In this document: piece by piece, positions 49,064 through 64,000 of the stretch | Layout of the letters: every line of letters begins with the position of its first letter | Position numbering within the stretch: the stretch's first letter is position 1 | Assembly: GCA_963812015.1 (NCBI GenBank) | Contig: CAWETI010000003.1 | Span: 1,856,001-1,920,000 of the forward strand | Source: an uncultured delta proteobacterium | GTDB taxonomy: Bacteria; Desulfobacterota; Desulfobaccia; Desulfobaccales; 0-14-0-80-60-11 | Length of the DNA stretch: 64,000 nucleotides | Direction: 5' to 3' | Notes under the pieces: generated by a model | Database searches by the model: none | Seen by the model: only the letters and a program-made list of their open reading frames with translations | Told to the model about the DNA's origin: nothing | Translations under genes and position numbers: made by a program

Positions 49064-50080
49064 CTATTGCGCCTGGGGAAGACAGTCGCGATAAAATTCC
49101 GAAAATTTCGGGATCTGTGCGATCAGGCCGTTTTCCTGGAGGACCCCCGCGACCCGGGCATACGCTTCGGACGTAAGGGTGCCCATGGGCAGGTTCCATC
49201 CCGGCGGCTGGATGATATCCCGCATCCGCTCCAGCATCCATTTCTGGTGGACCCGGTCCGTCGCCACATTCGCGGCCCGGACATAACCCATAACAATATC
49301 CAGGGATTCATCCGGGTGGGCGAAGGCATACCGCCACCCCTCGAGAGAAGCCGCCACGAAGGCCCGGCATCTTTCCGGATGCTGTTGCACCGTCTCTTCC
49401 AGGCAATAAATGCCGTCCTCGGGGAAGTTCATCCCGTAATCGGCCATAAAAAAAGTGGTTAATTCCTCCGGATTCACGCCGGCGTTGAGAATCTGGTGAT
49501 ACTCGTTGTACCACATGGCCGAGGCCACCTCTACCCCATCCCGCAAGAACAGGTTCAGGGTTGCCGATTGGGGGACCTCCCTCACCCGGAGATGGTGTTG
49601 GCGAAAAAAGGCCCGAGGCTGCAAGCGGAATTCATCCCCCCAGAGGCCCACTCTTTTGCCGTTGATGTCCGCGGGGGCGAGAACGCCCTGGGCTTTCTTG
49701 GCTACCAGCATGAGGGCGGACCGTTGCACCATCTGGGCTATGTTGACCAGTTTGCCCCCCTGGGCCCGCGCTTCGATGCCCTTGGCGAGAAACGCGGTCC
49801 CGAAATCAACCCGGCCCTGGGCCAGCATCTCCGAGGCCGGCCACTCGGGGCCGCCCCGCATGATTTTCACTTCCAGGTGGTGCTGCCGGTAGAAGCCCTT
49901 GGCGTATGCCACGTAGTAGCCGGCGAACTGGGCCTGGGGAAGCCACTGGGGCATAAAGGTGACCCGGGCCAGGCCGCTTTCCTGGGCTCTGGCCCCGGCC
50001 CCCAGCAGGAGGCAGGCCAGCAGCGCCATGACGCCGCCCTTCACCAGACGCGGTACTAAACCTACCATTAAGCCAGGCAT
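49064..50080 (-). CDS. NMT1/THI5-like periplasmic substrate-binding protein
   Basis: Signal peptide, QWLPQAQFAGYYVAYAKGFY, FVAASLEGWRYA. Confidence 0.88.
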   Translation of the reverse strand: MPGLMVGLVPRLVKGGVMALLACLLLGAGARAQESGLARVTFMPQWLPQAQFAGYYVAYAKGFYRQHHLEVKIMRGGPEWPASEMLAQGRVDFGTAFLAKGIEARAQGGKLVNIAQMVQRSALMLVAKKAQGVLAPADINGKRVGLWGDEFRLQPRAFFRQHHLRVREVPQSATLNLFLRDGVEVASAMWYNEYHQILNAGVNPEELTTFFMADYGMNFPEDGIYCLEETVQQHPERCRAFVAASLEGWRYAFAHPDESLDIVMGYVRAANVATDRVHQKWMLERMRDIIQPPGWNLPMGTLTSEAYARVAGVLQENGLIAQIPKFSEFYRDCLPQAQ

Positions 50081-50159
50081 GGCAACGCTCCCCCCTGTGT
50101 CTCTCACCTTGTGCGTGGCGCCCCCAACGCGCCTGGAGCTGCTAACCCCATCACGCTTT

Positions 50160-52124
50160 TCACCTGGGTCCCCCCTTACGCCGCCCCCGGGTTTTTGCAA
50201 AAGTCTGATAGATAGCCGGGGGCACCGAAGTGAAGCTGACCAGGATTTCGCACCGGTTCCCCTCCTGGTGCTTCACCTCGATAACCTTGCCATAGATAGA
50301 GCCCGGCATCGGTTCTTCATTCTCATCCAGAAACGTCAGGCGAACATCCTCCCAGGCTTCCAGGTTGCCCTCCGACGTCACCCGGGCGGCGGTGTCGCAC
50401 AGATGCGTCACCCAGGCCGTTCCGGTGGCGTAGGTGACAATCTTGTCCTTGATATGATGGATCTGGACCCGCTTCCTGGCCGGCAGCTTCGTAAGCTTAT
50501 CCGACTTGTCTCTCAGCCGGATATGGTAAGGGGGGCCGATGCCCCGGACGTCATAGAGCGTGGCCCGGCCCGGCACCCCCTTCATCTCCACCTGCTCCAC
50601 ACTACCCACTTCCACCAGGTCCTGCACCCGACTGTAGGTGGCGGCGCTGATCAGCACCTGCCCCGCCAGGGCACATCCTTCCATGCGGGACGCAAAGTTC
50701 ACGTTGGAACCCACAACGCTATACTTAGTCCGCCTTTCCGAGCCGATGTTGCCCACCACCACCGAGCCGGTGTTCACCCCGATGCCCATGGCCAGTCGGG
50801 GCAGGCCGTCGGCCTCGTTGGCGGCATTGATCTCATCCATGGCCGCCTGCATCTCCAAGGCGCAGGCGATGGCCCGGGCCGGGTGGTCTTCCATGGGTTC
50901 GGGGGCGCCGAAGAAGGCCAAGATGCCGTCCCCCAGAATTTCGTCGATGACGGCGTGGTTGTCCAGGAGAATTTCGATCATTTTGCTCAAATAGCGGTTG
51001 AGAAAGGTGATGACCTGCTCCGGGGCCATGTCGGCGATGATGGCGGTGAAACCCCGCAAATCCGACATGATGAGGGAGACCTCCCGGATCTCGCCGCCCA
51101 TTTCCAGAGCCCCTTCGGATTCCAACAGGCGCTTCACCACTTCCTGGGTGACATAGCGCCCAAAGGTGTCCCGGATGAAATCCCGCTTTTCGATATATTC
51201 GGTGAGTTGTTGTCCCAGTTCATTGAAGGAATGGGCCAGATCCGCCACTTCCCGCACCCCCCGTTCCCGCACGGCCACGGCGAAGTTGCCTCCCCCCACC
51301 TGGCGCACCCCGTCCCGGAGGTGAGAGATGGGACGGGAGATGGTCGCGGCAAACCACAGCCCCGACAAGATCCCAACGAGGCCCAGGGCCAGGCCGGCAA
51401 AGAGGCCTCCGATCATGACCTCCCGGTTGAGAACGGCATAATGCGCCTCGATCTGCTGTTTGGCCTGCACCATGGCGATCTGGGAGGATTCTTTGATCCC
51501 CTGTTGCGCCGGCAGGAAAAATTCATCCAGGTTGACGATGGCCGCAATGATGAACGGGGTGCCGGGGACATGGACCCGTACCGAGAACCGCTGCCTCTCC
51601 TTTTTGTCCTTATCGAAAAACGTAAAAAAACCCTGCACATAGTTTTCCTTAAAGGAACGCTTAATCAACTCCGTGGTCTCCGGGTATTCCTTCTCCCAAT
51701 CCAGCTGGTTTTTACCTTCCACGTTTGGGTCCGGGTGAAACAGTATGTAACCGCGCTGGTCATATAAATCCGTATAGCCCGCTGAACCATGCGGGGTGTA
51801 AATCGGCTGGATGGCAATAGCCCTTATCCGGGGATCCTGGCGCAGTTTGGCGTAATCATCGGTTTTTTTTCCTTTCAAGACATAGGCCAGTTCCCGAGCC
51901 ACCTCTTCGGCCTTGTCCTTGACGACGTATTCGCCCATCACGGTGAGGACTCGATCTGAATGTTGTATGTTCGTTGCGGTTACGTTATTTAGGGCCTGGT
52001 CGGCGATTTTGATGGCGCTCTTGGTGAGCCCGCCCAGCACATGGGCGTTGATGAACCAGGCGCCGACTATTAATATGGCAATAAGCGCCAGATAAGACAT
52101 GATCATATAGGTGCGCAGTCGCAT
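50160..52124 (-). CDS. Membrane class III nucleotidyl cyclase: TM-Cache-TM-HAMP-cyclase-PilZ-like
   Basis: Periplasmic Cache-like (ILFHPDPNVEG), HAMP, SDLRGFT, IDEILGD, VNFASRME. Confidence 0.92.
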   Translation of the reverse strand: MRLRTYMIMSYLALIAILIVGAWFINAHVLGGLTKSAIKIADQALNNVTATNIQHSDRVLTVMGEYVVKDKAEEVARELAYVLKGKKTDDYAKLRQDPRIRAIAIQPIYTPHGSAGYTDLYDQRGYILFHPDPNVEGKNQLDWEKEYPETTELIKRSFKENYVQGFFTFFDKDKKERQRFSVRVHVPGTPFIIAAIVNLDEFFLPAQQGIKESSQIAMVQAKQQIEAHYAVLNREVMIGGLFAGLALGLVGILSGLWFAATISRPISHLRDGVRQVGGGNFAVAVRERGVREVADLAHSFNELGQQLTEYIEKRDFIRDTFGRYVTQEVVKRLLESEGALEMGGEIREVSLIMSDLRGFTAIIADMAPEQVITFLNRYLSKMIEILLDNHAVIDEILGDGILAFFGAPEPMEDHPARAIACALEMQAAMDEINAANEADGLPRLAMGIGVNTGSVVVGNIGSERRTKYSVVGSNVNFASRMEGCALAGQVLISAATYSRVQDLVEVGSVEQVEMKGVPGRATLYDVRGIGPPYHIRLRDKSDKLTKLPARKRVQIHHIKDKIVTYATGTAWVTHLCDTAARVTSEGNLEAWEDVRLTFLDENEEPMPGSIYGKVIEVKHQEGNRCEILVSFTSVPPAIYQTFAKTRGRRKGGPR

Positions 52125-52322
52125 GGCTACTCCGGTGTATCCTTAATCCCGCTGAAAACGGCGCGGCCGGGAACCCTCGGCGGAATTATACAACGTTTCG
52201 GATTAAATGGAGGAAAGATTCAATATGCGAGCAGACTTAAGGAATCGGAGCCGCCCGGCGGCCCGGATGGACGATTATGAAAGAGCTTGCCGGGTCGGCA
52301 CCTTGGCACCGGCCGCTGGGGC

Positions 52323-53642
52323 TCAGGGGTAGATCCGATCCAAAAGGCGGGGAAAGGGGATGGTTTCCCGGACATGGTGCAGGCCGCAGAGCCAGGCCAC
52401 CAGGCGCTCGATGCCCATGCCGAAGCCGCTGTGGGGCACGCTGCCGTAGCGGCGCAGGTCCAGATACCATTCCAGGGGTTCCTGGGGCAGGTGATGCTCC
52501 CGGATGCGGGCCAGCAAGAGGTCCAGGTCAGCGATGCGCTGGGAGCCCCCGACAATCTCGCCGTAGCCCTCCGGGGCCAGCATGTCCACGCAGAGGGCTA
52601 GCCGGGGATCGACCGGGTCCGGTTCCATATAAAAGGCCTTGGCCTCCTTGGGGTAGCGGTGCACCAGCACCGGCCGGGGAAACAATTGGGAGAGCACGGT
52701 CTCCTCGTCTCCACCCAGATCTTCGCCCCAGGCCAGGTCTTTGCCGTGTTGTTTCAGGTGTTCCAGGGCCTGGGCATAGCTGAGGCGGGGGAACGGTCCG
52801 GCCACTTCCTCAAGGGGGGCGATATCCCGCTCCAGGAGACGTAGCTGCGCCGCCTGGCGATCCAACACCCTGAGGACCACGGCCCGCACCAGGCCCTCGG
52901 CCAATTCCATCATATCATCCAGGGTAAAGAAGGCCGCCTCGGCCTCCACCATCCAGAACTCCGTCAGGTGGCGACGGGTCTTGGATTTTTCCGCCCGGAA
53001 GGTCGGCCCGAAGCAATACACCCGGCCCAGGGCCATGGCCGCGGCCTCGAGATAGAGCTGGCCGCTCTGGGACAGATAGGCCTTGCCCCGGTCCAGATAG
53101 TCCGTCTCGAAGAGGCTGGTGGTACCCTCGCAGGCCGTGGGAGTAAGGATGGGGGTGTCCACCAGGACGAACCCCCGTTCGTGGAAAAAATCCCGGCAGG
53201 CCCGGCAGACCTCGTCCCGGATCCTCAGGATGGCCTGCTGCCGGGGAGACCGGAGCCACAGGTGGCGCCGATCCATGAGAAAGGCCACCCCGTGTTCCTT
53301 GGGGGAAATGGGATAGTCCGGGGCGATCTGCAGGGGTATCACCCGGGTCACTTCCAGCTCAAAGCCCCCGGGAGCCCGGGGCTCGGCCCTGACCCGGCCT
53401 TCCAGGATCAGGGAGGTTTCCAGGGTAAGCATCTCGAATTGCTGAAAATCTTCCTCAGGGAGGTTCCCCTTGACCAGTACCCCCTGGGCCAACCCGGTGC
53501 CATCCCGGACCACCAGAAAGCGGACCTTGCCGCTGGAACGCAGATGGTACACCCATCCGCGCAGGGACACGGCCTGTCCGACATGCTGGGCCAGGGAAGC
53601 GATGTCAACCACCGGTGCGGTGGTGGTAATAGTTGGCGGCAT
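52323..53642 (-). CDS. asnS: Asparagine--tRNA ligase
   Basis: LRGWV..LRSSGK, RHLWLRS, YLSQSGQLY, FRAEKS.TRRHLTEFWM, PHSGFGMGIER. Confidence 0.95.
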   Translation of the reverse strand: MPPTITTTAPVVDIASLAQHVGQAVSLRGWVYHLRSSGKVRFLVVRDGTGLAQGVLVKGNLPEEDFQQFEMLTLETSLILEGRVRAEPRAPGGFELEVTRVIPLQIAPDYPISPKEHGVAFLMDRRHLWLRSPRQQAILRIRDEVCRACRDFFHERGFVLVDTPILTPTACEGTTSLFETDYLDRGKAYLSQSGQLYLEAAAMALGRVYCFGPTFRAEKSKTRRHLTEFWMVEAEAAFFTLDDMMELAEGLVRAVVLRVLDRQAAQLRLLERDIAPLEEVAGPFPRLSYAQALEHLKQHGKDLAWGEDLGGDEETVLSQLFPRPVLVHRYPKEAKAFYMEPDPVDPRLALCVDMLAPEGYGEIVGGSQRIADLDLLLARIREHHLPQEPLEWYLDLRRYGSVPHSGFGMGIERLVAWLCGLHHVRETIPFPRLLDRIYP

Positions 53643-53807
53643 AGGATGGCGAACCTTATCGGTCAACTTGCCAAAATCGTTATGAATTGTAATGGGCAAA
53701 GGCTCTCGGGGCCTTGCCCTTGCCGTCCAGGAAGACAGCTTCTGCGGCCCGCTTTCGCCAGGCGCCCCACGGTGGCCTCAAGGCCTACAGCTCACTGCTT
53801 ACTCCTC

Positions 53808-54755
53808 CTACAACATGATCTTGATGTGAGCCTTTTCCCGCAAGGTCTTGACCCAATCGCCAAAATACTTATTCATTTCCTGTTGGGTCACTATTCTGCG
53901 AATTTCCGGGGCCGCCTCTTCAAAGGAGCGGGCCTCGCCGCTGCGGCGGCCCAAAATTTGAATCAATTGATAGCCTTCCGGGGTTTCCACCGGGGCCAAA
54001 TCGTTCATTTTCAACTGGCCCAGGAATTCGGCCAGCCGCGGGTCCAGGTCGCTTTGGTTCACAAACCCCACATCCGTAGGTTTGAGTGAGAGTTTCCCGG
54101 CCGCCGTCGCCAGAGACTCACCCCGTCTCACATCCGTGATGATGGTCTCCGCGTTCTTTTTGGCTTCCTCTTTTTGCTGGCTGGTGGCCCCCGGCGGGAA
54201 CGGCAGCTTTAAGGTCATGAGATGCACCTGGTTGCCGCTTTTCTTGAATCTTTCCTCATAGAGGCGGCGCACCTCGGCGTCACTGACCATAACCTTTGTC
54301 CCCACCACCACCGGCAGCAATCGCTCCTGAATCATTTGATCCGCAATCTGCTGCCTGAATTCTTTTATGGAAAGCCCGGCCTGGGACAGTCCCTTGGCCA
54401 GGGTTTCGTCATCGGGAATATTATTGGACTGCTTGAAGCGAGCCAGGGATTCATCCACTTCTTTGTCGGTTACCTTGATGCCCCGGCGATTGGCCTCGGC
54501 TTTGGCCAGTTTGCGGTCAATCAAGGCCTCCAGCATCTCGCGCTCCATTTTCTTCTCAACTGCCCCTCCAGATTTAATCCCTGACTGGGCCTGAATGGTC
54601 TTGCCCATGTTTTGCAACTCGGACATGGTGATGATTTCGTTGTTAACTTCGGCTACAATCCGGTCCACCACCTCAGCCATACCCGTCCCCGTCTGCGCCA
54701 ATTGGATCAGGACGGCAACCAGAGCGATGAGTAAAGGCCCCTTAATTTTTATCAT
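53808..54755 (-). CDS. SurA-like periplasmic chaperone / parvulin PPIase
   Basis: Signal peptide, VDRIVAEVNNEIIT (SurA_N), degenerate rotamase domain, LREKAHIKI. Confidence 0.85.
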   Translation of the reverse strand: MIKIKGPLLIALVAVLIQLAQTGTGMAEVVDRIVAEVNNEIITMSELQNMGKTIQAQSGIKSGGAVEKKMEREMLEALIDRKLAKAEANRRGIKVTDKEVDESLARFKQSNNIPDDETLAKGLSQAGLSIKEFRQQIADQMIQERLLPVVVGTKVMVSDAEVRRLYEERFKKSGNQVHLMTLKLPFPPGATSQQKEEAKKNAETIITDVRRGESLATAAGKLSLKPTDVGFVNQSDLDPRLAEFLGQLKMNDLAPVETPEGYQLIQILGRRSGEARSFEEAAPEIRRIVTQQEMNKYFGDWVKTLREKAHIKIML

Positions 54756-54759
54756 CGAT

Positions 54760-57700
54760 TTAACCCTCTACCTCTGCATTAACAAATGTCTCGACTTCTT
54801 TCAAGCAGTTTTGCAACTGCGTGAGTACCGGGCCGGTTTCCGGGAGTTGAATCCGCAAGGTTTGATCCGGGGTGAGGCGAAAGGTCTGGGGCCGCTTCTT
54901 GAGGATGCCGATCAAACGGCCCAGGTCCAGGCGCTCCGGGTGGGCAAATTGCAGCACCGCACAATTGTCCTGCAGGTCCAAACGCTTGATCCCCAATTGC
55001 CGCAACTGGTGTTTAGCCCGCACCACCTCCAGGAGATTGCGCCCCTCCTGAGGCAGGGGCCCGAAGCGGTCAAGAAATTCCGCTTCCAGTTCCTTCAGCA
55101 TCTCAGGCGTCAGGCGACCCGAGAGACGCCGGTACAGGGCCAGGCGCTGCTGCACATCGGGGACATAATCTTCGGGCAAATAAGCGGCCAGGGGCAGATG
55201 GATTTCCGGGTCCGGCGTCGCCTCCTCCATCGGTTCCCCTTTGTATTCCCGAATGGCCTCCTCCAACAGTTGGAGATAGAGTTCGTAGCCCACCTCGGCT
55301 TGGTGGCCCGATTGGGCCTGTCCCAGCAGGTTGCCGGCCCCCCGGATCTGGAGGTCGTGCATGGCTATCCTGAAGCCGGAACCCAGTTCCGTGAACTCCA
55401 TCAGGGCCTTGAGGCGCTTCTGGGCCTCATTGCTCAGGGCCGCCTCGTCCGGGACCAGCAGATAGGCGTAGGCCTGGGACTGGCTGCGTCCCACCCGGCC
55501 TCGCAACTGATAGAGCTGGGCCAATCCCATGGTATGGGCCCGGTTGATGATAATCGTGTTGGCCGAGGGAATATCCAGCCCGGCCTCAATGATGGCGGTG
55601 CACACCAGGACACTTACCTCCCGCCGCCAGAAGCGCACCATGACCCGTTCCAGTTCCTTTTCCGCCATCTGGCCATGGGCCATGGCCACCCGGGCTTCCG
55701 GCACCAGTTCCTGGACGTACCGGGCCCAGGTGGCCAGACTCCGCACCCGGTTGTGCACGAAGAAGACCTGGCCACCCCGGTCCAACTCCCGGCGGATGGC
55801 GGACTGGATCACCGCGGCCTCCGGCAGGCAGACATAGGTGCGGATGGCCCGGCGGTTCTCCGGCGGGGTGTTGATCAGGCTCAACTCCCGGATGCCGGTG
55901 AGGGATAACTGCAAGGTGCGGGGAATGGGGGTGGCCGTGAGGGTGAGGACATCCACAGTGCGCCGCCACTCCTTCAGCCGCTCTTTCTGCCGGACCCCGA
56001 AGCGCTGCTCTTCGTCCACGATGACCAGTCCCAGGTCCTGGAACGTGACGTCTTTGGACAGCAGACGATGGGTCCCGATCAGGATGTCCACTTTTCCTTG
56101 GGCCAGGTCCGCCAGGATCCGTTTCTGCTCCGCCGGCGACTTGAACCGGCTCAGGGCCCTTACCTCCAGAGGAAAATGAGCCAGGCGATGCCGGAAGGTG
56201 TCGTAGTGCTGCTCCGCCAACACCGTGGTGGGCACCAGCATCGCCACCTGTTTGCCATCCATGGCGGCCTTGAACGCGGCGCGCACCGCCACCTCGGTTT
56301 TGCCGTAGCCCACGTCCCCGCAGATCAGGCGGTCCATGGGTTTCTCCGAGCCCATGTCCAACAGCACGTCGCCGATGGCCTGCAACTGGTCCGGGGTCTC
56401 CTCATATTCGAAGGTGGCTTCAAACTCGCGGTAGACCGGGTCCGGGGGCGAAAAGTGGTGCCCCGGCAGCACCCGGCGCAGGGCATAAAGCTCCACCAGT
56501 TCCAGGGCGATCTTTTCCACCGCCTTTTTTACCCGGGTTTTGGCCCGTTCCCAGGACTTGCCTCCCAGACGCTCCACCCGGGGGCTCACCCCTTCCACCC
56601 CCAGGTATTTCTGCACCAGGTTGAGGCGGTCCACGGGGAGATAGAGCCGGTCCCCGCCCTGGTATTCCAGCTCCAAAAAGTCGTTGACTTCGCTGCCCAC
56701 CGTGAGTTTGATCAGGCCCCGGTAGATGCCAATGCCGTGGTCCAGGTGAACCACGTGATCGCCTTCCGTCAGGTCGGCCAGGGAAGTGAGATCCTGGAGC
56801 GGCGGGGATTCCTTGCGCCGCCGCCCTTCCGGCCGGAATCCCAGGGCTTCATCTTCGGTGAGGACAATCAGGCCTTCCGAGAGCAGCCGAAACCCCCCGG
56901 TCAATTCCCCGGCGGTAATTTCCACCCGGTTCCCGCGCCCCCAGGCGGGGGCCGGGGTGAACTCCACCTCCAGGCCCTCTTCCGTCAGCAGGCGGGCCAG
57001 GCGCTCGGCCCGATGCCGGTTCAAGGATACCAGGATGACGTGGAACCCGGAGCTGCGCCATTCCCTCAGGTGCTGCGCCAGGGCCGGGATTAACCGTCCG
57101 GTTTCACCCCCGGCCTGGACCAGTTCCTCGGCCAGGTGGTCGTTTTTCTCCACCTGGAAGGTGATATCCTGGTCCTGATCCGGATGGCCCCAGAGTAAAG
57201 GGGGGCAGAAGATCTGGGCGAAACGGCGGCATTGCTCTTCCCAGGGGGTTTGATCCAGCCAGCCCTGGGGTACGCCGGCCGCGGCTTCCTCCTGCTTCTG
57301 CAGTTCCTGCCCCAGGATCAAGGGGTCCCATTCCACCACCACGGTGTCCGGGGGTAGGAGGTCCCACAGGGTCGGAGGATGGTCGTAAAACTCCTCCAGA
57401 TGACGTTCGATCCGGGGGAAATGCCGGCCCTCGTGGACGTGGCGCCAAAATTCCGGATCCTGGCGGCGGCTGCGCCGGGCCAGAACGCGCTCCCGGACGG
57501 CTTCGTCCAACACCACTTCACTGGCCGGAAGCACCAGCAGGTCGTCCAGCGTCCCCTGGGAACGCTGGGTGCCAGGATCGAAGCGGCGGATGGACTCCAC
57601 CTCATCCCCCCAGAACTCCAGGCGCACCGGTTGGGGATAGAGCGGCGGAAATAGGTCGATGACCCCGCCCCGGACGCTGAACTCCCCCCGTTCCTCCACC

Positions 57701-58221
57701 ACGGGTCGGCGCTCATAGCCGCCCTCCAAAAGGTGGGCCAGCAACTCCGGGCGTTCCAGACTTTCCCCCGCCACCACGTAGGCCAAAAGGTCCCGAATCC
57801 GGGCCTCCGGGGGCAGCTTCTGCCGCAGGGCCAGGGCCGGTGCTACAATGAGGCACGGCTCCCGGGCAGTCAGGGCCACATAGGCGGCCGCCATACGGGC
57901 GCAGCTCACGTCAGCGTCGAAGCTCAGTTCCCGAAATGGCAAGACCTCGTGGGCCGGGAACATGAGGACTCGGGACTCCGGGCCGGTGGCCCGGACGACC
58001 TCTTCCCCCAGAAAAAAGATCAAGTCCTTAAAAAAATGTTCATGAAAATTGACATTGGGGGTAACCAGGAGGACCGGGCGCTGGATTTGTTGGAAGAGCC
58101 GGGCCAGGATATAAGCCCCGGCTCCGGGAGTGAGCCCCTGGAGATATGCCGGCCGGGATTCCCGGGAGAGAGCCACAGCCAGATGCTGCGCTGCCGCGCT
58201 TAAAGATAACGTGCCTACCAC
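54760..58221 (-). CDS. mfd: Transcription-repair coupling factor
   Basis: RGGVIDLFP, CarD-like VHLDHGIG, CGDVGYGKT, DEEQRFG, TATPIPRTL, QLRGRVGR; start approximate (ORF open to 58299). Confidence 0.97.
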   Translation of the reverse strand: MVGTLSLSAAAQHLAVALSRESRPAYLQGLTPGAGAYILARLFQQIQRPVLLVTPNVNFHEHFFKDLIFFLGEEVVRATGPESRVLMFPAHEVLPFRELSFDADVSCARMAAAYVALTAREPCLIVAPALALRQKLPPEARIRDLLAYVVAGESLERPELLAHLLEGGYERRPVVEERGEFSVRGGVIDLFPPLYPQPVRLEFWGDEVESIRRFDPGTQRSQGTLDDLLVLPASEVVLDEAVRERVLARRSRRQDPEFWRHVHEGRHFPRIERHLEEFYDHPPTLWDLLPPDTVVVEWDPLILGQELQKQEEAAAGVPQGWLDQTPWEEQCRRFAQIFCPPLLWGHPDQDQDITFQVEKNDHLAEELVQAGGETGRLIPALAQHLREWRSSGFHVILVSLNRHRAERLARLLTEEGLEVEFTPAPAWGRGNRVEITAGELTGGFRLLSEGLIVLTEDEALGFRPEGRRRKESPPLQDLTSLADLTEGDHVVHLDHGIGIYRGLIKLTVGSEVNDFLELEYQGGDRLYLPVDRLNLVQKYLGVEGVSPRVERLGGKSWERAKTRVKKAVEKIALELVELYALRRVLPGHHFSPPDPVYREFEATFEYEETPDQLQAIGDVLLDMGSEKPMDRLICGDVGYGKTEVAVRAAFKAAMDGKQVAMLVPTTVLAEQHYDTFRHRLAHFPLEVRALSRFKSPAEQKRILADLAQGKVDILIGTHRLLSKDVTFQDLGLVIVDEEQRFGVRQKERLKEWRRTVDVLTLTATPIPRTLQLSLTGIRELSLINTPPENRRAIRTYVCLPEAAVIQSAIRRELDRGGQVFFVHNRVRSLATWARYVQELVPEARVAMAHGQMAEKELERVMVRFWRREVSVLVCTAIIEAGLDIPSANTIIINRAHTMGLAQLYQLRGRVGRSQSQAYAYLLVPDEAALSNEAQKRLKALMEFTELGSGFRIAMHDLQIRGAGNLLGQAQSGHQAEVGYELYLQLLEEAIREYKGEPMEEATPDPEIHLPLAAYLPEDYVPDVQQRLALYRRLSGRLTPEMLKELEAEFLDRFGPLPQEGRNLLEVVRAKHQLRQLGIKRLDLQDNCAVLQFAHPERLDLGRLIGILKKRPQTFRLTPDQTLRIQLPETGPVLTQLQNCLKEVETFVNAEVEG

Positions 58222-58356
58222 TTTATAACCATATCCCGGCAAGGGAATTTTTTCAAGAAGCCCTTGATTCCCCCGTCTGGGCAAGCTCTCCTGCGTCATC
58301 CAGAATTGGCCATAGCTTCCAAATCAGGCGGCTGCAAGACTGTTAGGTCCTCCAAA

Positions 58357-58454
58357 TGGTCATTCTGAGCCTAGCGGCTAATCTATTTTTCTAACTATAT
58401 TATGGATAATACCCTTCATTCAGGATGACAAAAACCTCTTTTCCAACACCCTGT
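58357..58454 (+). repeat. MITE-like repeat, family C
   Basis: GTCATTCTGAG...TTCAGGATGAC inverted core plus AAAAACCTCTTTTCCAACA tail shared with 36119-36224. Confidence 0.7.
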
Positions 58455-58784
58455 ATTGAGCCAATTGGAACATTCGCCCAAAATTTCTTCCGATAAATGG
58501 TTTATTTATCATACCTTCCCCCCCAGCTACACCGATAGAAAGAAAAAAGTGGTCTATGGTTAGATGTCTGCACCTTTAGGCAAAATTTTTCTACCACCTT
58601 TGCATTTCGCACCTCCTCAGCCTCATTCAGGCGACTCTGACCCTCTGTATGGCAGCACACCTCCCCTGGACGGCTTCTCGCACATGCACTTCAACTAGCT
58701 GTATTCTCTTATTTATTCAGAATAGCGGCATATTTCCCCCAGGGCGTCGCCTTCCCGAATAAAAATCTGCCGGGCCCATCTGAC

Positions 58785-58800
58785 TGGCAACAAACTTGCA
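58785..58800 (+). promoter_or_regulatory. sigma-54 (-24/-12) promoter upstream of csrA-fliW
   Basis: TGGCAACAAACTTGCA: exact GG-N10-GC spacing, near consensus TGGCAC-N5-TTGC. Confidence 0.7.
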
Positions 58801-59017
58801 TAACAAATTTAAGAATACTGCGCCAAAACGCCCCAGACACGGACGGAGGCGTGGGCGTGTGAGATGTTTGCGAAGTATTGCCTTAATGCATCCCGGTCTT
58901 GATCGGTCAGACAACCGCCGGGGGAAATCAACCAAGGCGGGAAGCCGGGGAATTCATGCGGGCCGGTTAACCTATCGGTTATCCACGCTAACCTGGCAAC
59001 GCCACAGGGGTCATACG

Positions 59018-59779
59018 GTGCTTATTTTAACCCGCAAGATCGGTGAAAGTATTCTGATAGGCGACAATATCCGGGTGGTGGTTTTGGAAGTGCGCGGCCG
59101 ACAAATCCGGCTGGGCATTGAGGCCCCTACGGATATTGTGGTGCTGAGAGAGGAAATCGCTCAACGCCTCGCCGATGAAAACCTTCAGGCGGCCAATTCC
59201 CAGTTCCAGGACGTACAGCAGGCGCTCAAGTCCTTGGAACCCAAGGTAGTTTGCCGCAAGCCCTTGCGGCCAAGCCAGCCTGGATCTCCCACCGTCATCA
59301 TCGACTCCAAGGCCTTAGGCCAGGTAACGGTGCCGGAAGACCGCATCATTACCTTCGCCGCGGGACTGCCCGGATTTCCCGATTTCCAGCGGTATGCCCT
59401 GCTCAATGGCCAGGTGGCACCGCCGTTCTATTATCTCCAATGCGTAGATAACCCCTCCCTGGCTCTTATAGTGACCGACCCCACCACCTTAGTGCCGGAT
59501 TATCAATCCAAAAACGGCGGGAGCACCTTAAAGGAATTGTGCGCTCAAAGCTACGAGGACTTGCAGGTCCTGGTAACCCTGACCATACCCCCTGGCCGCC
59601 CCCGGGAAATGACCGCGAACTTGATGAGTCCGCTCCTGATTAACCCGGAACTGCGTTTGGGCAAACAGGTAGTCATCGAAAAGTCGCCGTATTCCCATCA
59701 GTATCCGGTGTTATCTTTGAGACCAGGCTGCCAGCCCCAAGGGAACGGGAACAGTAATTCATTGAATGAAGGCTCATGA
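59018..59779 (+). CDS. csrA-fliW: CsrA-FliW fusion protein (253 aa)
   Basis: GTG start [18 protein letters not shown]...LGIEAP..I.VLREEI...EN (CsrA), in frame with [10 protein letters not shown]...[11 protein letters not shown]...[11 protein letters not shown]...GKQVV (FliW); no stop between them. Confidence 0.92.
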
Positions 59780-60302
59780 TGTTCTCTTTTGTGAACATCT
59801 TTCCTAACCTGATCCCCTATCACGATTACCCCCCACACCTCCTAACCTTAAAAATCGATTAGGGGGGCCCCGAACCCGCCTGGTTGGTTTTCGCCAAAGG
59901 GAACGAGCCTTCCCTTCGGCGCCCCTTGACCGAAAAACTTCCCGGCTCGCCGCCCCTGCCAACGACTGCCCCGGCGCCATCATCCCACGGGTAAGGGGCC
60001 GCCCCGCCTCGATTAGCTTGGGGATTATTCACCAGGCAAAGTCATCGGGGAAAAAGTCTTCTCGAAATTCCGCCTGACCCCGTCAATGGCCGCTGGTAAG
60101 CCACCAGCTGAACCTAAGGTGACCGGGCCTGGGGAAATAAGCCATCCCCTGATTCTTTTTCTTGGGCTTTATTATTGATGGAGGTTTTGATATATTTATT
60201 AGGCAATATCAATTGCTGAGAGTGCGGTTCTTGCGATGGTAACCCCTCATTGTGTAAAGGGAAACGCCAACTGAGATTTTTTTCCAGCGTCCATCAATTA
60301 TA

Positions 60303-60332
60303 TTGACATTTTCCTTTGTGCGCATATATTAT
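60303..60332 (+). promoter_or_regulatory. Putative sigma-70 promoter
   Basis: TTGACA-18 nt-TATTAT upstream of the 60424 gene. Confidence 0.6.
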
Positions 60333-60423
60333 GGCCTGGAAAGGAGTTTGTTGGCTTTTTCTCATTTACTCCACTGGGGGAGGAGAAGCCGGTAATCAAC
60401 CTTAGCAAAAAGGAGGAAGGTGT

Positions 60424-60762
60424 ATGCGGTCTAAATTGTTGGTCGGGTTGCTGGTGGTAGTGGTCGCGGTATTTTTCGTCTCTTCCCTCGCTACGGCTCA
60501 AAAGTTGGGAAGCGCTAAGTTGCTGTGCGTCTCCAAGAAAGAGCTGAAGGGCGAAGAGACTGTGGCTTCGTGCATGGCCAAAGGGGAACGGTTTGCCATC
60601 GTTGATCCTTATGGCATGGTGCGCATCTTAAGCCCGGAAGAAATAGAACTGACCAAGGCTTTTAATCCCAAAGCCTTCGAGACCCGGGCCTTTGGTATGA
60701 GATATCAGCAGTTGGCTCCGGCGCTGCCGCCCATGCCGTCTTTGACCCAGGAAGCTCCGTAA
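60424..60762 (+). CDS. Small exported hypothetical protein
   Basis: Strong SD AGGAGG, signal peptide ending ATA, two Cys, followed by a terminator. Confidence 0.85.
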   Translation: MRSKLLVGLLVVVVAVFFVSSLATAQKLGSAKLLCVSKKELKGEETVASCMAKGERFAIVDPYGMVRILSPEEIELTKAFNPKAFETRAFGMRYQQLAPALPPMPSLTQEAP

Positions 60763-60796
60763 GTCTATTTGCCAACTTCACTTCAGTATGCAGATG

Positions 60797-60829
60797 GCCC
60801 CCAAAGTGCGCTTTGGGGGCTTTCTCTTT
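60797..60829 (+). terminator. Intrinsic terminator
   Basis: GCCCCCAAAG-TGCG-CTTTGGGGGC-TTTCTCTTT. Confidence 0.75.
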
Positions 60830-60845
60830 AACATGAGAGGTTTTT

Positions 60846-61571
60846 ATGCTTGAGATCGATGACCTCTGGGTAAATATCGACGACAAGGAGGTGCTCAAGG
60901 GCATCAACCTCCGGGTGCCCGTGGGGGAGACCCATATCCTCTTTGGCAAGAACGGCTCGGGCAAATCCAGCCTGCTCATGGCCATCATGGGTTTCGAACG
61001 CTATCAGGTGAAGCAGGGCCGGATCAGCTTCCTGGGCCAGGATATCACCCAACTGCCCACCTATGAGCGGGCCCGCCTGGGCCTGGGCCTCTCCTTCCAG
61101 CGCCCCCCCACTATCCGGGGCGTCAAGACTGCGGACCTCTTGCGGGTCTGCTCCCGGGGCGTCGTCGCCCCCGAGGCCCTGGCCGCGGTGTATGATTTTA
61201 CCCCGTTTCTGGAGCGAGAGGTCAATTACGGCTTTTCCGGGGGGGAGATCAAGCGCTCCGAACTCCTGCAATTGCTGGCCCAGAACCCCAAGATGGTGCT
61301 CCTGGACGAACCGGAGTCGGGGGTGGACCTGGAGAACCTCCAGGTAGTGGGGAAGATCATCGCCCACCTGCTCCAAAAGGAGCGCCGCCGCCAGCACCGG
61401 GAAAAATCCGGCCTGATCATCACCCACACCGGCTTCATCATGGATTACGTCAACGCCGATCGGGCTTACATCCTGGGCGACGGCCGCATCTGCTGCCACG
61501 GCAACCCCGGGGAGCTCCTGCACGATATCAAGAACTTCGGTTACGAGGAATGCGCCAAATGTCGCAGATAA
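60846..61571 (+). CDS. sufC: Fe-S assembly ABC ATPase SufC (SmsC-type)
   Basis: GKNGSGKS, FSGGEIKR, LLDEPESGVD, IITH; Cys-rich tail ICC...CAKC. Confidence 0.92.
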   Translation: MLEIDDLWVNIDDKEVLKGINLRVPVGETHILFGKNGSGKSSLLMAIMGFERYQVKQGRISFLGQDITQLPTYERARLGLGLSFQRPPTIRGVKTADLLRVCSRGVVAPEALAAVYDFTPFLEREVNYGFSGGEIKRSELLQLLAQNPKMVLLDEPESGVDLENLQVVGKIIAHLLQKERRRQHREKSGLIITHTGFIMDYVNADRAYILGDGRICCHGNPGELLHDIKNFGYEECAKCRR

Positions 61572-62767
61572 AAAACCGGGCCGAGGAGAGTCGGCATAAA
61601 AAAGCCGCCTTCGGGTCTGATCTTAACCTGGAGGAGTTTTCCCGTCAGGGGGGCGCCTGGGAATACGACCCGGACTACCGGCAGTTTTCCCCGGAGGAAC
61701 GGAGCCGCCTGCTCACCACCGGCATCGAGCTCACTGACGAAGATCATGCCGCCACCTTCCTCCAGGCCGACAAGGCCATCGTCCACTGTCAGACCCGGCA
61801 ACCGGGGGTTGAAGTCCTGCCCATCACCGAAGCGGTGCGCCGCCACGGCTGGGTCAATAACCTCCTCTGGGGCCTGGTGGCGGTGGATGCCGACAAATAC
61901 ACCGCCGCCGCCGAGCTGGAGTTGGACAACGGGTATTTCATCAGGGCCCTCCAAGGGGCTCAAATCGCCCAGCCGGTGGAATCGTGCCTCTACCTGCGCA
62001 CCGACCGGTTTGCCCAACACGTGCACAACCTGGTGGTGGTGGAAGAGGGGGCCTCGCTTCACATCATCACGGGGTGCGCCACCCACCCCGGGGTCCGCTC
62101 CGGCCTTCACATCGGGGTCTCGGAATTCTACGTCAAGAAAGGCGGGCAGCTCACCTTCACCATGATCCACAACTGGGGCGAGGACGTCCATGTGCGCCCC
62201 CGCACCGCGGTCATGGTGGAGGAAGGGGGCCGCTACATCTCCAACTATATCCTGCTGCGGCCGGTGAAGACCGTGCAGATGTATCCCACCGTCACCTTGA
62301 ACGGCGCAGGCGCCGTAGCTCGCATCCAGTCCATCCTTATCGCCCATCCCGGCGGCGAGCTGGACGTGGGCGGCCGGGTGATCCTCAAGGCCCCCCACAC
62401 CCGGGCCGAAATCATCGCCCGCACCCTGGCCATCGGCGGCACCAGCATCGCCCGGGGCCACCTTGTCGGCCTGGTGCCGGACATCAAGGCCCACTTGGAA
62501 TGCCGGGGTCTCATCCTGGGCACCGGGGTGGTCTACGCTATTCCCGAACTGGAGGGCCGGGCGGCCGGGGTGGACATGTCCCATGAAGCCGCGGTGGGCA
62601 AGATCGCCGCCGAGGAAGTGGAATACCTCATGGCCCGGGGTCTGGACGAAGATGAAGCCGTCTCTACCATCGTCCGCGGCTTCCTCAACGTCAAGATCGA
62701 GGGCCTGCCCGCGGCCCTGGAGGAAGAAATGGAGCACGCTATCCAGGAAACCGGCAAGGGGCTGTGA
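61559..62767 (+). CDS. sufB: Fe-S assembly scaffold SufB/SufD family (SmsB-type)
   Basis: IITGC, HIGVSEFYV, HLECRGL, IPELE, SHEAAVGKI..EEVEYLMARG. Confidence 0.9.
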   Translation: MSQIKNRAEESRHKKAAFGSDLNLEEFSRQGGAWEYDPDYRQFSPEERSRLLTTGIELTDEDHAATFLQADKAIVHCQTRQPGVEVLPITEAVRRHGWVNNLLWGLVAVDADKYTAAAELELDNGYFIRALQGAQIAQPVESCLYLRTDRFAQHVHNLVVVEEGASLHIITGCATHPGVRSGLHIGVSEFYVKKGGQLTFTMIHNWGEDVHVRPRTAVMVEEGGRYISNYILLRPVKTVQMYPTVTLNGAGAVARIQSILIAHPGGELDVGGRVILKAPHTRAEIIARTLAIGGTSIARGHLVGLVPDIKAHLECRGLILGTGVVYAIPELEGRAAGVDMSHEAAVGKIAAEEVEYLMARGLDEDEAVSTIVRGFLNVKIEGLPAALEEEMEHAIQETGKGL

Positions 62768-62863
62768 GGTGACGGATATTCGAGGAGAGGTCCAGAGGCC
62801 GAAGAGGCCGAGGGCGGCCGGCTCATCCGGAAAATCCCCGTTGGCCGGTTGAGGCGGCAGGAA

Positions 62864-62906
62864 GAAATATTGCGGGGCACGGCGACGCCGTGCCCCGCAA
62901 TATTTC
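62864..62906. repeat. Perfect 21-bp inverted repeat (REP-like) between convergent genes
   Basis: GAAATATTGCGGGGCACGGCG-A-CGCCGTGCCCCGCAATATTTC. Confidence 0.85.
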
Positions 62907-62928
62907 AGGACGGGGCGGCCCGGGCCGT

Positions 62929-63336
62929 TTACTTCGCCGGCGCCGGGCCTTTCACCGGAATGATTAGGTTGTCCCAGCCCAGCCTGCGGCTCAATCCTGA
63001 GCTGTGCGTCATCAGGCTGGTGAGAAACCAGCGCGACTGCCCCTCGGGGAGGGTGAGCAGCTGGAACCGGGCTTCATAAACCACAGGTTTTTGGTCCTTT
63101 TCGCTGGGGTTGGTGATGAGCACATAGGCTACCTGGGTGGCGGAGTTCTCCCCGGCCTTATAAAATCCATAGAATTCCGCCACCTTACAAAAGTTGGCGT
63201 TCCAGTTATCCAGGGTGTGCTTGGCCGCCGCCGCCGTCAACGGCGAAGCCTGCGGCGAAGAAGGAAAGGCGCAGCCCAGAAAACAACCCAGCAGGAGCAT
63301 CATTGCCGCCAAGCGGCACCAGCCCGACACCTTCAT
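62929..63336 (-). CDS. Hypothetical lipoprotein
   Basis: SD AGGAGGAG, lipobox-like LLGC/FLGC. Confidence 0.75.
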   Translation of the reverse strand: MKVSGWCRLAAMMLLLGCFLGCAFPSSPQASPLTAAAAKHTLDNWNANFCKVAEFYGFYKAGENSATQVAYVLITNPSEKDQKPVVYEARFQLLTLPEGQSRWFLTSLMTHSSGLSRRLGWDNLIIPVKGPAPAK

Positions 63337-63490
63337 GCCCTTCTCCTCCTTTGCCGGCATCGTTGAGAGCGCCTCCGGTTCCGGCCTCCAGCCATCCACG
63401 CAGGCGCGTTATCGCCGCCATAAAAAGATTATGCCCACCGCGGCGCAAGGCTGAACCAGAAAACCTTCTGCCTTCGGGGTTGGGCTTGCT

Positions 63491-63943
63491 TCATTGCTTC
63501 AGCAGCCCTGCTTCCTGGAGCCAGCGTTTTACCTGCTCGAAGGCATCCCGCCCCTGGGCCACCAGGTTGCCTTGAGGACTGAAAATCATGAAAAACGGCA
63601 CCTGCCGGATATTATGCTGCTGCGCCAGGGGCGAGCGCCAGTCAATCCCCTGGACATTCGGCCGGTTAATGTTGACTTTCTTAATGGCCAGGTCCGGGCG
63701 CTTGGCGGCCAGCTGTTGCATGAGGGGGGCCAGGCGGACGCACGGCGGGCAATAAGGGCTGTAGAAATCGATCAGGGTGGTTTTCCCCGGGGTCAACAGG
63801 GATTTAAGGTCCAGGGTCTCGCCGCCGTTGCCGGCATTGGCATCCGCGCCCGCCCCGGCCCAGACGCCGGAGGCCAGGAGCCCCAGAGACAGGATGGCCG
63901 CCAAGACCAGCGACTGCCGGATAAATTTGATGGGGCGCGCCAT
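63491..63943 (-). CDS. Exported thioredoxin-family protein
   Basis: Signal peptide, DFYSPYCPPC, cis-Pro VP motif. Confidence 0.88.
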   Translation of the reverse strand: MARPIKFIRQSLVLAAILSLGLLASGVWAGAGADANAGNGGETLDLKSLLTPGKTTLIDFYSPYCPPCVRLAPLMQQLAAKRPDLAIKKVNINRPNVQGIDWRSPLAQQHNIRQVPFFMIFSPQGNLVAQGRDAFEQVKRWLQEAGLLKQ

Positions 63944-64000
63944 AGCCTTTACATAGTGCCTTACCTGATAGTTGTCAATCATTTTCCCGCCGTCCCCCCG

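Follow-up and report, generated by a model that had tools for sequence, protein, structure and literature searches.

To our knowledge, flagellin is the only known input of FliW, the protein antagonist of the RNA-binding regulator CsrA. Here we describe a gene in which the two proteins are joined in a single open reading frame (ORF), csrA-fliW, carried by an uncultured Desulfobaccales bacterium from sediment on contig CAWETI010000003.1 of assembly GCA_963812015.1; the 64,000 nt of this contig that were analysed are referred to as the window, and positions are those of the window. The nearest described system is the Hag-FliW-CsrA switch, known from Bacillus subtilis and from the Geobacillus thermodenitrificans complex (PDB 5DMB). 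The locus shares with it the same two protein families, the FliW fold, the helix bearing N55 and the contact residues, and a 2:2 stoichiometry is possible. It differs in that CsrA and FliW form one chain, in that order, with no flagellin, FliS, FlhA or FliG and no flagellar operon. Compared with the Bacillales pair, the fusion is without the K123-D41 bridge, and FliW positions that are kept in flagellated relatives are relaxed. In Geobacter sulfurreducens, which belongs to the same phylum (Thermodesulfobacteriota), N55 is needed for FliW to bind CsrA and the outputs are non-flagellar (biofilm and electron transfer; PMC13407953, which, like the other papers cited below, is drawn on from excerpts of its text). 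There, however, the proteins are separate and flagellin is still present, with the role of FliC left open in the excerpts of that paper. CesT of enteropathogenic Escherichia coli is likewise a protein, rather than a small RNA (sRNA), that antagonises CsrA, but it competes at the RNA-binding pockets of CsrA, is unrelated to FliW and is unfused (PMC5864733, PMC7652899). FliW itself has been described as 'widely dispersed among motile bacteria' (PMC7652899). A full-text search of a limited collection of papers found none that names a natural CsrA-FliW fusion; in the excerpts of PMC13407953, 'CsrA fused' denotes an experimental tag.

The fusion belongs to the CsrA and FliW families, and not to the flagellin-FliW-CsrA system, whose third partner, separate proteins and flagellar operon are all missing here. 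Nor does its FliW part qualify as a flagellin-binding assembly factor, as flagellin is absent from the genome and from 37 genomes of the fused genera. The reading that we prefer, and to which we give about an even chance, is that the gene encodes a working regulator, CsrA and FliW in a single chain, passed down vertically within a Desulfobaccales lineage that has no flagella, with the FliW gate docked in cis and the gene driven by a sigma-54 promoter. The relevant features of the window are the following (pLDDT, predicted local distance difference test).

58496-58595, + strand: genus-conserved boxes AATGGTTTATTT (at 58496), GATGTCTGCAC (at 58563) and the near-palindrome GGCAAAATTTTTCTACC (at 58579), candidate sites for an activator or a bending protein
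58785-58800, + strand: sigma-54 type -24/-12 element TGGCAACAAACTTGCA, 233 nt before the start; one match in the window, 0.38 expected
59006-59010, + strand: Shine-Dalgarno sequence AGGGG, 7 nt upstream of the GTG (AGGGA or AGGA in relatives)
59018-59779, + strand: csrA-fliW fusion gene, 253 codons plus stop in a single open frame, with a GTG start at 59018 and the stop codon at 59777-59779
59018-59170, + strand: CsrA domain, residues 1-51 (Pfam PF02599), the beta core with the dimer and RNA-binding faces; L4 and R44 are present
59147-59230, + strand: C-terminal helices of CsrA (residues 44-59, with N55 at 59180-59182, and 63-71), the FliW-binding extension; secondary structure predicted by AlphaFold2 (AF2), pLDDT 82-92
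59231-59293, + strand: proline-rich linker, residues 72-92, pLDDT 59-68, placed by comparison with split relatives
59294-59716, + strand: FliW domain, residues 93-233 (Pfam PF02623, residues 111-231), with the codon of Q217 at 59666-59668
59717-59776, + strand: C-terminal tail, residues 234-253, unconserved and predicted to be disordered, pLDDT below 50 from residue 236

The initial annotation of this gene, made from the letters of the window, had proposed one ORF of 253 amino acids (aa) with a complete CsrA domain, a helical extension, a proline-rich linker and a complete FliW domain, and both the ORF list and the Pfam searches bear this out. The CsrA part matches PF02599 at 77.1 bits over residues 1-51 (cut-off 27) and exceeds the cut-offs of the NCBIfam CsrA equivalogs (NF002469, 81.4 against 73; TIGR00202, 80 against 70.1). 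The FliW part matches PF02623 at 118.3 bits (cut-off 25) over residues 111-231 and all profile positions (1-122 of 122), and its model superimposes in Foldseek on 5dmb_A with a target-normalised TM-score (TMt) of 0.90, a root mean square deviation (rmsd) of 1.9 Å and E 5.6e-11. The NCBIfam FliW equivalogs match it at E 1e-33, yet under their cut-offs (114 against 130 and lower). In the fusion frame neither a stop codon nor a Shine-Dalgarno sequence with a start codon stands ahead of the FliW part, as had been claimed, and the R44 and N55 pointed out in the CsrA part are not only present but invariant in 40 of 40 aligned fusions. All 40 aligned homologues likewise begin at this position, with M or V; a 327-aa ORF running from TTG 58796 was dismissed as an upstream extension without conservation. 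The Shine-Dalgarno sequence is a possible CsrA site on the gene's own mRNA, autoregulation being just an idea.

Judged from the sequences collected, the fusion is a clade-wide gene of three genera and not a lone oddity. A search of 5.8 billion proteins returned 325 matches at E<=0.001, and all of the 120 listed carry both the CsrA and the FliW Pfam domain (identity 65-92%, length 232-291 aa); in the alignment of 40 fusions the CsrA part is nearly invariant and the linker is free of indels. A scan of one genome per species, with loci classed by purpose-built CsrA and FliW hidden Markov models (HMMs), yielded 80 loci. Both domains lay in one open frame in 20 of these (18 Desulfobaccales-like metagenome-assembled genomes (MAGs) at 53-72% identity and two Nitrospirae MAGs at 34-37%), 59 had two genes, nine of them in the order fliW-csrA (Firmicutes and others), and one was truncated at the end of its contig. 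Among the 80 are 15 loci from Desulfobacterota-like genomes (L023, L025-L033, L035, L036, L039, L042 and L043) that have csrA and fliW in frame with a single intervening stop, and the same layout was seen in three loci of the order-wide set (L116, L120 and L121), where the stop is TAA. Fusion by a single mutation is therefore easy, which may explain its recurrence.

Within the order, the two domains share one frame in 34 genomes of the genera g1, g4 and g8 (31 of 31 checked loci by HMM, and three g8 loci by a full-length match free of stops). In g1, the genus of the window, this is the case for 16 of 18 genomes, the two misses being 87% and 56% complete and without any FliW at all; in g4 it is so for three of four, the fourth (G020) matching residues 48-232 alone and being left unclassified; and in g8 for 15 of 15 (12 by HMM, three by full-length match). 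The initial annotation had allowed that all relatives might be split and that the stop codon had been lost recently, and this clade-wide distribution in three genera speaks against that. In a further sample from the same source study, the fusion gene is matched exactly, in pieces, by contigs. Contigs of relatives from two RNA libraries also span the junction, one covering 59081-59482 with an in-frame insertion of 3 nt and the other 59151-59297 without a gap, and a hand check of their listed substitutions in 59215-59261 found no stop created. Thus the check across the linker that had been proposed at the outset found relatives crossing it in frame, with the proviso that a contig from an RNA library is not proof of transcription and that RNA ends cannot be read from contigs.

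The genome that contains the window (3.96 Mb in six contigs, 99.86% complete, 5.72% contamination) has no match anywhere to Flagellin_N, Flagellin_C, FHIPEP/FlhA, FliG_C or FliS. HMMs built from the flagellins of relatives (first 80 residues, and full length), when run against its 54,162 ORFs of at least 40 aa, gave best E values of 3-7 and so no hidden flagellin. The claim that flagellin, flgK and flgL are missing from the window therefore stands, and the claim that the fusion lies away from any flagellar locus can be widened, as none was found genome-wide. Across the order (83 genomes), FliW is found in 71 genomes, Flagellin_N in 30 and FHIPEP in 29, and in the fused genera g1 (18 genomes), g4 (4) and g8 (15) flagellin and FlhA are each found in 0 of 37. 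Flagellin cannot therefore be the releasing ligand, which is a firmer statement than the earlier one that the ligand might be something else. In seven other non-flagellated genomes csrA and fliW are separate genes (g2, g3, g9, g13 and two of g17), the nine genomes of g16 have neither FliW nor flagellin, and one flagellated genome (G062) gave no FliW match.

The same genome, searched for stand-alone copies as had been suggested, has a single FliW, which is the fusion, and two CsrA matches, namely the fusion and a stand-alone copy of 53 aa that lies outside the window (contig C3, 1493812-1493961; locus L003, 1501-1662). The stand-alone CsrA is 63% identical to the fusion over residues 2-50, is without the N55 helix, and has L rather than R at position 6. 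It directly follows two ORFs that, judged from their sequence by eye, resemble MucR/Ros-type regulators.

The CsrA and FliW domains were concatenated for a maximum-likelihood tree of 63 rows, namely all 50 loci retrieved from the order and 13 outgroup loci chosen from the remainder of the one-genome-per-species scan. In this tree the 31 rows of fused Desulfobaccales genes make up a single clade (support 95/84). This clade is nested in a non-flagellated clade (94/86) whose other branches (g9; g2, g3 and g13 together) are split, and the sister group of the non-flagellated clade is formed by the flagellated genera of the family. The Nitrospirae fusions are placed elsewhere in the tree, so that two origins are needed. 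Gene order follows the same series. In a flagellated relative, flgI, flgN, flgK, flgL, csrA and fliW are followed by three opposite-strand genes (a 268-aa ferredoxin-like gene, mvhD/flpD and an hdrA-like gene). In a split non-flagellated relative, csrA and fliW follow mfd, which is on the other strand, and precede the same ferredoxin-like, mvhD/flpD and hdrA-like genes; and in the fused g4 locus surA, mfd (other strand) and the fusion are again followed by these genes. In g1 mfd lies upstream of the fusion in every locus of sufficient length, while the downstream genes vary; the neighbours in the window are mfd, surA, a small secreted-looking ORF and sufC/sufBD, with no late flagellar operon. 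The conserved synteny argues for vertical descent.

Taken with the tree, these comparisons show that the flagella were, on the evidence of the genes, lost first and the csrA stop codon later. An ancestral flgK-flgL-csrA-fliW operon shed its flagellar genes, and csrA-fliW remained at its old chromosomal position, between mfd and the hdrA/mvhD-like cluster. When set against split relatives, the linker is seen to be built from what was once the end of CsrA (ENLQAA.F.Y.D..E..), the stop codon and spacer that followed it, and the N-terminal tail of FliW; the comparison shows the fusion to have arisen, as far as aligned sequences can tell, by plain stop-codon loss, once, in the common ancestor of the three genera. 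By gene order, the relics of the flagellar operon at the fusion locus are its chromosomal position and its promoter only.

That promoter is of the sigma-54 type, with GG at -24 and GC at -12 correctly spaced. All 16 loci of the window's own genus have a similar element, 111-236 nt ahead of the start codon, as do eight of 12 g8 loci and some split non-flagellated loci, and rpoN is present in the genome (a Sigma54_DBD match on contig C2). A near-identical element (TGGCAGAGGAATTGCA and variants) is found in seven of 12 flagellated relatives, where it is situated ∼1.15-1.27 kb before csrA, at the flgK/flgL junction, and the g2 locus carries the identical 16-mer. Since a deletion of flgL would place its promoter beside csrA, the element is read as a retained flagellar sigma-54 promoter, one that apparently drives the fusion gene and was inherited from flgL. 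A scan for sigma-70 promoters and terminators gave nothing convincing for the fusion gene, the one promoter-like site being before the next ORF.

Further upstream, 190-290 nt before the sigma-54 element, the three boxes are conserved in the window's own genus only, the near-palindrome reading GGCAAAATTTTTTTACC in relatives. A degenerate form of box 1, TGTC[CT]G[CG]AC, is present in 11 of 16 own-genus loci and as a strict palindrome in seven of 16, with none in other genera. In the whole genome (3.96 Mb) box 1 (GATGTCTGCAC) and box 3 (AATGGTTTATTT) are each unique, and there are five copies of the 12-nt core of box 2. These genome-wide occurrences gave no lead to a co-regulated partner gene, the four other places of box 2 being unexamined. 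The joints of the RNA-library contigs of relatives (58678/58812 and 58919/58997) and their uncovered parts were considered as well, and yielded nothing firm on the transcript start.

Selection was estimated by the Nei-Gojobori method from pairs with a whole-gene synonymous rate (dS) of 0.1-1.5 (118 pairs in g1, 62 in g8). The ratio of nonsynonymous to synonymous rates (dN/dS) was 0.115 in g1 and 0.15 in g8 for the CsrA part, 0.25 and 0.38 for FliW, and 0.51 and 0.65 for the linker, and reached 0.71 for the tail in g1. By these ratios, both the CsrA and the FliW part are shown to have been kept by purifying selection since the fusion. Mean pairwise identity among 31 fused genes follows the same order (CsrA 0.74, FliW 0.56, residues 60-92 0.29, tail 0.08). 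In 29 of the 31 fused loci N55 and G116 are 61 residues apart, the two exceptions having spacings of 60 and 62; the sequence of the linker is thus free but its length fixed, which suggests a geometric constraint.

L2, L4, R6, R44 and I47 are invariant in the 40 aligned fusions, L4 and R44 being critical for RNA binding by CsrA (PMC7652899), and N55 is invariant in the same alignment and likewise in the fused loci. On the FliW side, residues required for CsrA binding in Bacillus and Geobacillus include N108, G122, K123 and Q124 (Oshiro et al., bioRxiv 10.1101/2020.07.02.184341). Mapped by alignment to 5DMB chain A, the CsrA-binding residues correspond in the fusion to N201 (N108), S204 (A111), G215, K216 and Q217 (G122, K123 and Q124) and L150 (F58; F in most relatives). 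Over 34 tabulated sequences, N201 and Q217 are each found in 34, K or R at 216 in 33 and G215 in 31. Two flagella-less g17 genomes with flagellated congeners still keep the E, H and W of FliW at positions that are relaxed elsewhere in the non-flagellated clade, which fits a recent loss of flagella. M198, kept in 10 of 12 flagellated relatives, falls within the segments of B. subtilis FliW that flagellin protects, residues 3-11, 22-28 and 95-115 according to the excerpts of PMC6070490. In our reading of these alignments, the constraint on FliW that was tied to flagella is gone, and the constraint from CsrA binding has been kept.

Structure models were examined for how the two parts might act on each other. 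The AF2 model (40-row alignment) has a mean pLDDT of 77 and a predicted TM-score (pTM) of 0.71; residue blocks 51-60 and 61-70 reach 92 and 82, the FliW domain has ∼76-95 per 10-residue block, the linker 59-68, and the tail less than 50. When residues 44-253 were modelled without the CsrA core, helix 45-59 kept a pLDDT of 85-92 and pTM was 0.80. Such confidence in the absence of the core is as expected for helices that pack on FliW in cis, an indirect sign that, together with the fixed spacing from N55 to G116, makes this packing plausible. The predicted homodimer has an interface score (ipSAE) of 0.56, against 0.00 for the best of three controls, with at least 93% contact agreement between runs and a partner pLDDT of at least 76, a mark that 20 of 30 solved homo-pairs and one of 23 single chains reach. 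Its interface is made by residues 1-48 only, as in the classical CsrA dimer, and the pass may reflect likeness to solved CsrA dimers. As the inter-chain contacts are confined to residues 1-48, the model gives no confident sign of the FliW domain reaching the partner chain.

From these models and the conserved residues we infer self-gating of CsrA by its tethered FliW. The protein would dimerise through the CsrA beta core, and each FliW would bind, through the N55-Q217 couple, to the C-terminal helix of the CsrA in the same chain. The docked FliW would hold the RNA-binding faces in an inhibited state and make RNA binding conditional. Such a gate would be deaf to flagellin, and would be opened by a non-flagellin signal, or else the brake would be competed off by abundant, high-affinity GGA RNAs. 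The amount of protein would be set by the sigma-54 promoter inherited from the flagellar regulon. We more tentatively suggest, at rather less than an even chance, that after the loss of flagella the module was exapted as a one-component, sigma-54 driven post-transcriptional regulator, its gate answering a non-flagellin signal (a client protein, a metabolite or a modification), and that it controls non-motility genes in a widespread group of sediment Desulfobaccales that are non-motile.

Several points weigh against the preferred reading. The case for cis docking is built on pLDDT, pTM and conserved residues. The tree describes a gene and is midpoint-rooted, and the dN/dS pairs are non-independent, with high dS (0.7-1.0). 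Position 41 of the fused CsrA is V, so that the K123-D41 salt bridge of Bacillales is absent and, from the alignment, has no counterpart in the fusion. In Bacillus one FliW per CsrA dimer is enough for inhibition (bioRxiv 10.1101/2020.07.02.184341), so that a tether holding the two at 2:2 might shut CsrA off permanently. Permanent silencing in turn fits poorly with the strong selection on the RNA-binding residues unless something releases CsrA; given that selection, CsrA must be active at least sometimes. Nine FliW positions (F100, Q109, L118, I129, E130, H131, L138, W139 and G204) vary in the non-flagellated clade, the fused genera included. In 12 flagellated relatives of two families, seven of the nine are invariant and H131 and L138 are each kept in 11; as these groups are related lineages, the difference is a pattern rather than a statistical test. 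Positions 100, 118 and 204 fall within the flagellin-protected segments given above and the block 129-139 outside them. That flagella-linked positions are free to vary speaks against the old site having been taken over by a new, conserved ligand, and no conserved replacement ligand site is visible at the nine, nor was a candidate ligand gene found. Finally, the predicted fold of the putative 5' leader (58812-59040) is no more stable than that of shuffled sequences (z = -0.49), and the leader shows no clear pair of GGA hairpins; on the z value, the notion that the leader is structured or acts as a decoy RNA was dropped.

The variable former ligand positions favour a fixed brake over a signal-opened gate, and a brake without any releasing signal is the alternative that survives best, although we hold it doubtful. 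The tethered FliW would then permanently lower the affinity of CsrA, so that only the best targets are bound and all regulation is transcriptional, through the sigma-54 promoter. The lack of a conserved ligand site at the positions kept in flagellated relatives fits this, as do the absence of a flagellin-like ORF from the genome, the fixed linker length, and the conservation of the sigma-54 element and of the genus-specific upstream boxes. It is harder to see why a brake of 140 residues should be kept at a dN/dS of 0.25-0.38 when a point mutation could weaken CsrA. The split non-flagellated relatives also retain the csrA/fliW pair, and the fusion is therefore not needed for the pair's job.

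It is unlikely, in our estimation, that FliW no longer inhibits at all and has become a stabiliser, a scaffold or a chaperone-like domain for a new client, leaving CsrA constitutively active. Whilst the invariant RNA-binding residues of CsrA would suit such a role, as would the absence (V41) of the K123-D41 bridge, which in Bacillales is needed for inhibition and not for binding, the N55/Q217 couple is invariant, and G215 and K216 are largely kept in the 34 tabulated sequences. Moreover, the bridge is specific to Bacillales and other core contacts are expected elsewhere (bioRxiv 10.1101/2020.07.02.184341), and the FliW of Geobacter, in the same phylum, antagonises CsrA through N55 (PMC13407953). 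Far less probable still is that the fusion acts on the stand-alone 53-aa CsrA by forming mixed dimers that are then held inactive. In its favour are their 63% identity over residues 2-50 and the fact that the stand-alone CsrA, without the N55 helix, cannot bind FliW itself; against this, position 6 of the stand-alone CsrA is L instead of R, several fused genomes show no such CsrA paralogue, and the proposal is pure inference. The least credible reading is that the gene is a remnant of the lost flagellar regulon in decay, or that a stop codon disappeared through an error of assembly or sequencing. The gene does occupy the former place of a flagellar operon, and with csrA and fliW in frame with one stop in 15 of 80 loci a single error could mimic a fusion. 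This reading is refuted, as far as sequence data allow, by the 34 genomes of three genera, the two domains in 120 of 120 listed matches, dN/dS well under 1 for both domains, the constant length of the linker, and contigs from RNA libraries and from DNA that cross the junction independently.

The gene has a bearing on how FliW inhibits CsrA allosterically, as it amounts to a natural experiment in which the 1:1 stoichiometry is fixed, the antagonist is unable to move away and the original ligand is missing. A clade without flagella that keeps and fuses CsrA and FliW under purifying selection implies that the pair acts beyond flagellin homeostasis, and the series from operon through orphaned pair to fusion shows a regulatory module outliving the machine that it served. 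What appears to be new here is this series, together with the complete absence of flagella from the fused clade, the relaxed FliW sites, the fixed linker length and the retained promoter.

The sequence comparisons also indicate that CsrA-FliW fusion recurs and arose independently elsewhere, including inside flagellar loci. Two Nitrospirae MAG loci (L040 and L041, 6001-6660) carry an independent fusion in the gene order flgI, flagellin, flgK, fusion, flagellin, fliD. The domain order is the same, the frame is open throughout and N55 is kept, with a spacing from N55 to G116 of 50 residues compared with 61 here. The position of the Nitrospirae fusion among flagellin, flgK and fliD genes indicates that fusion is compatible with function. 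In a profile search, 32 of the 150 best cluster representatives (clusters at 50% identity) were scanned with Pfam, giving 16 CsrA-FliW, one FliW-CsrA, 11 tandem FliW-FliW and four FliW alone. Including the window's own representative (P0085, with both domains on record), CsrA-FliW proteins make up 17 clusters at 50% identity, of which six (P0085 and P0122-P0126) probably belong to this Desulfobaccales clade, going by length and linker. Another fused protein, P0271, occurs on 152 contigs and is 26% identical to the Nitrospirae fusion. The tandem FliW proteins without CsrA are 260-326 aa long (P0127, P0132, P0138, P0141, P0143, P0145, P0153, P0164, P0178, P0188 and P0235). The one protein with FliW ahead of CsrA (P0162, 229 aa) is on a single contig, and may therefore be a rare form or an error.

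Finally, some observations concern the surroundings of the fusion gene. An Rfam scan of 50000-64000 at E<=1 returned two chance-level matches, none of them in the leader; one, to Yersinia sRNA 141 (56114-56384, + strand, within mfd but on the opposite strand), scored 24.9 bits against a gathering threshold of 196 and is almost surely due to chance. Downstream of the fusion, an ORF of 112 aa (60424-60762, + strand) has a hydrophobic N-terminus and no Pfam match. Within the stretch, the RNA-library contigs peak in summed depth at this ORF, a measure that does not rank expression. It is preceded by a sigma-70-like promoter at 60303-60332 and lies 650 nt from the fusion in the window, compared with ∼5 kb in relatives, in which the 112-aa protein is 62-85% identical.

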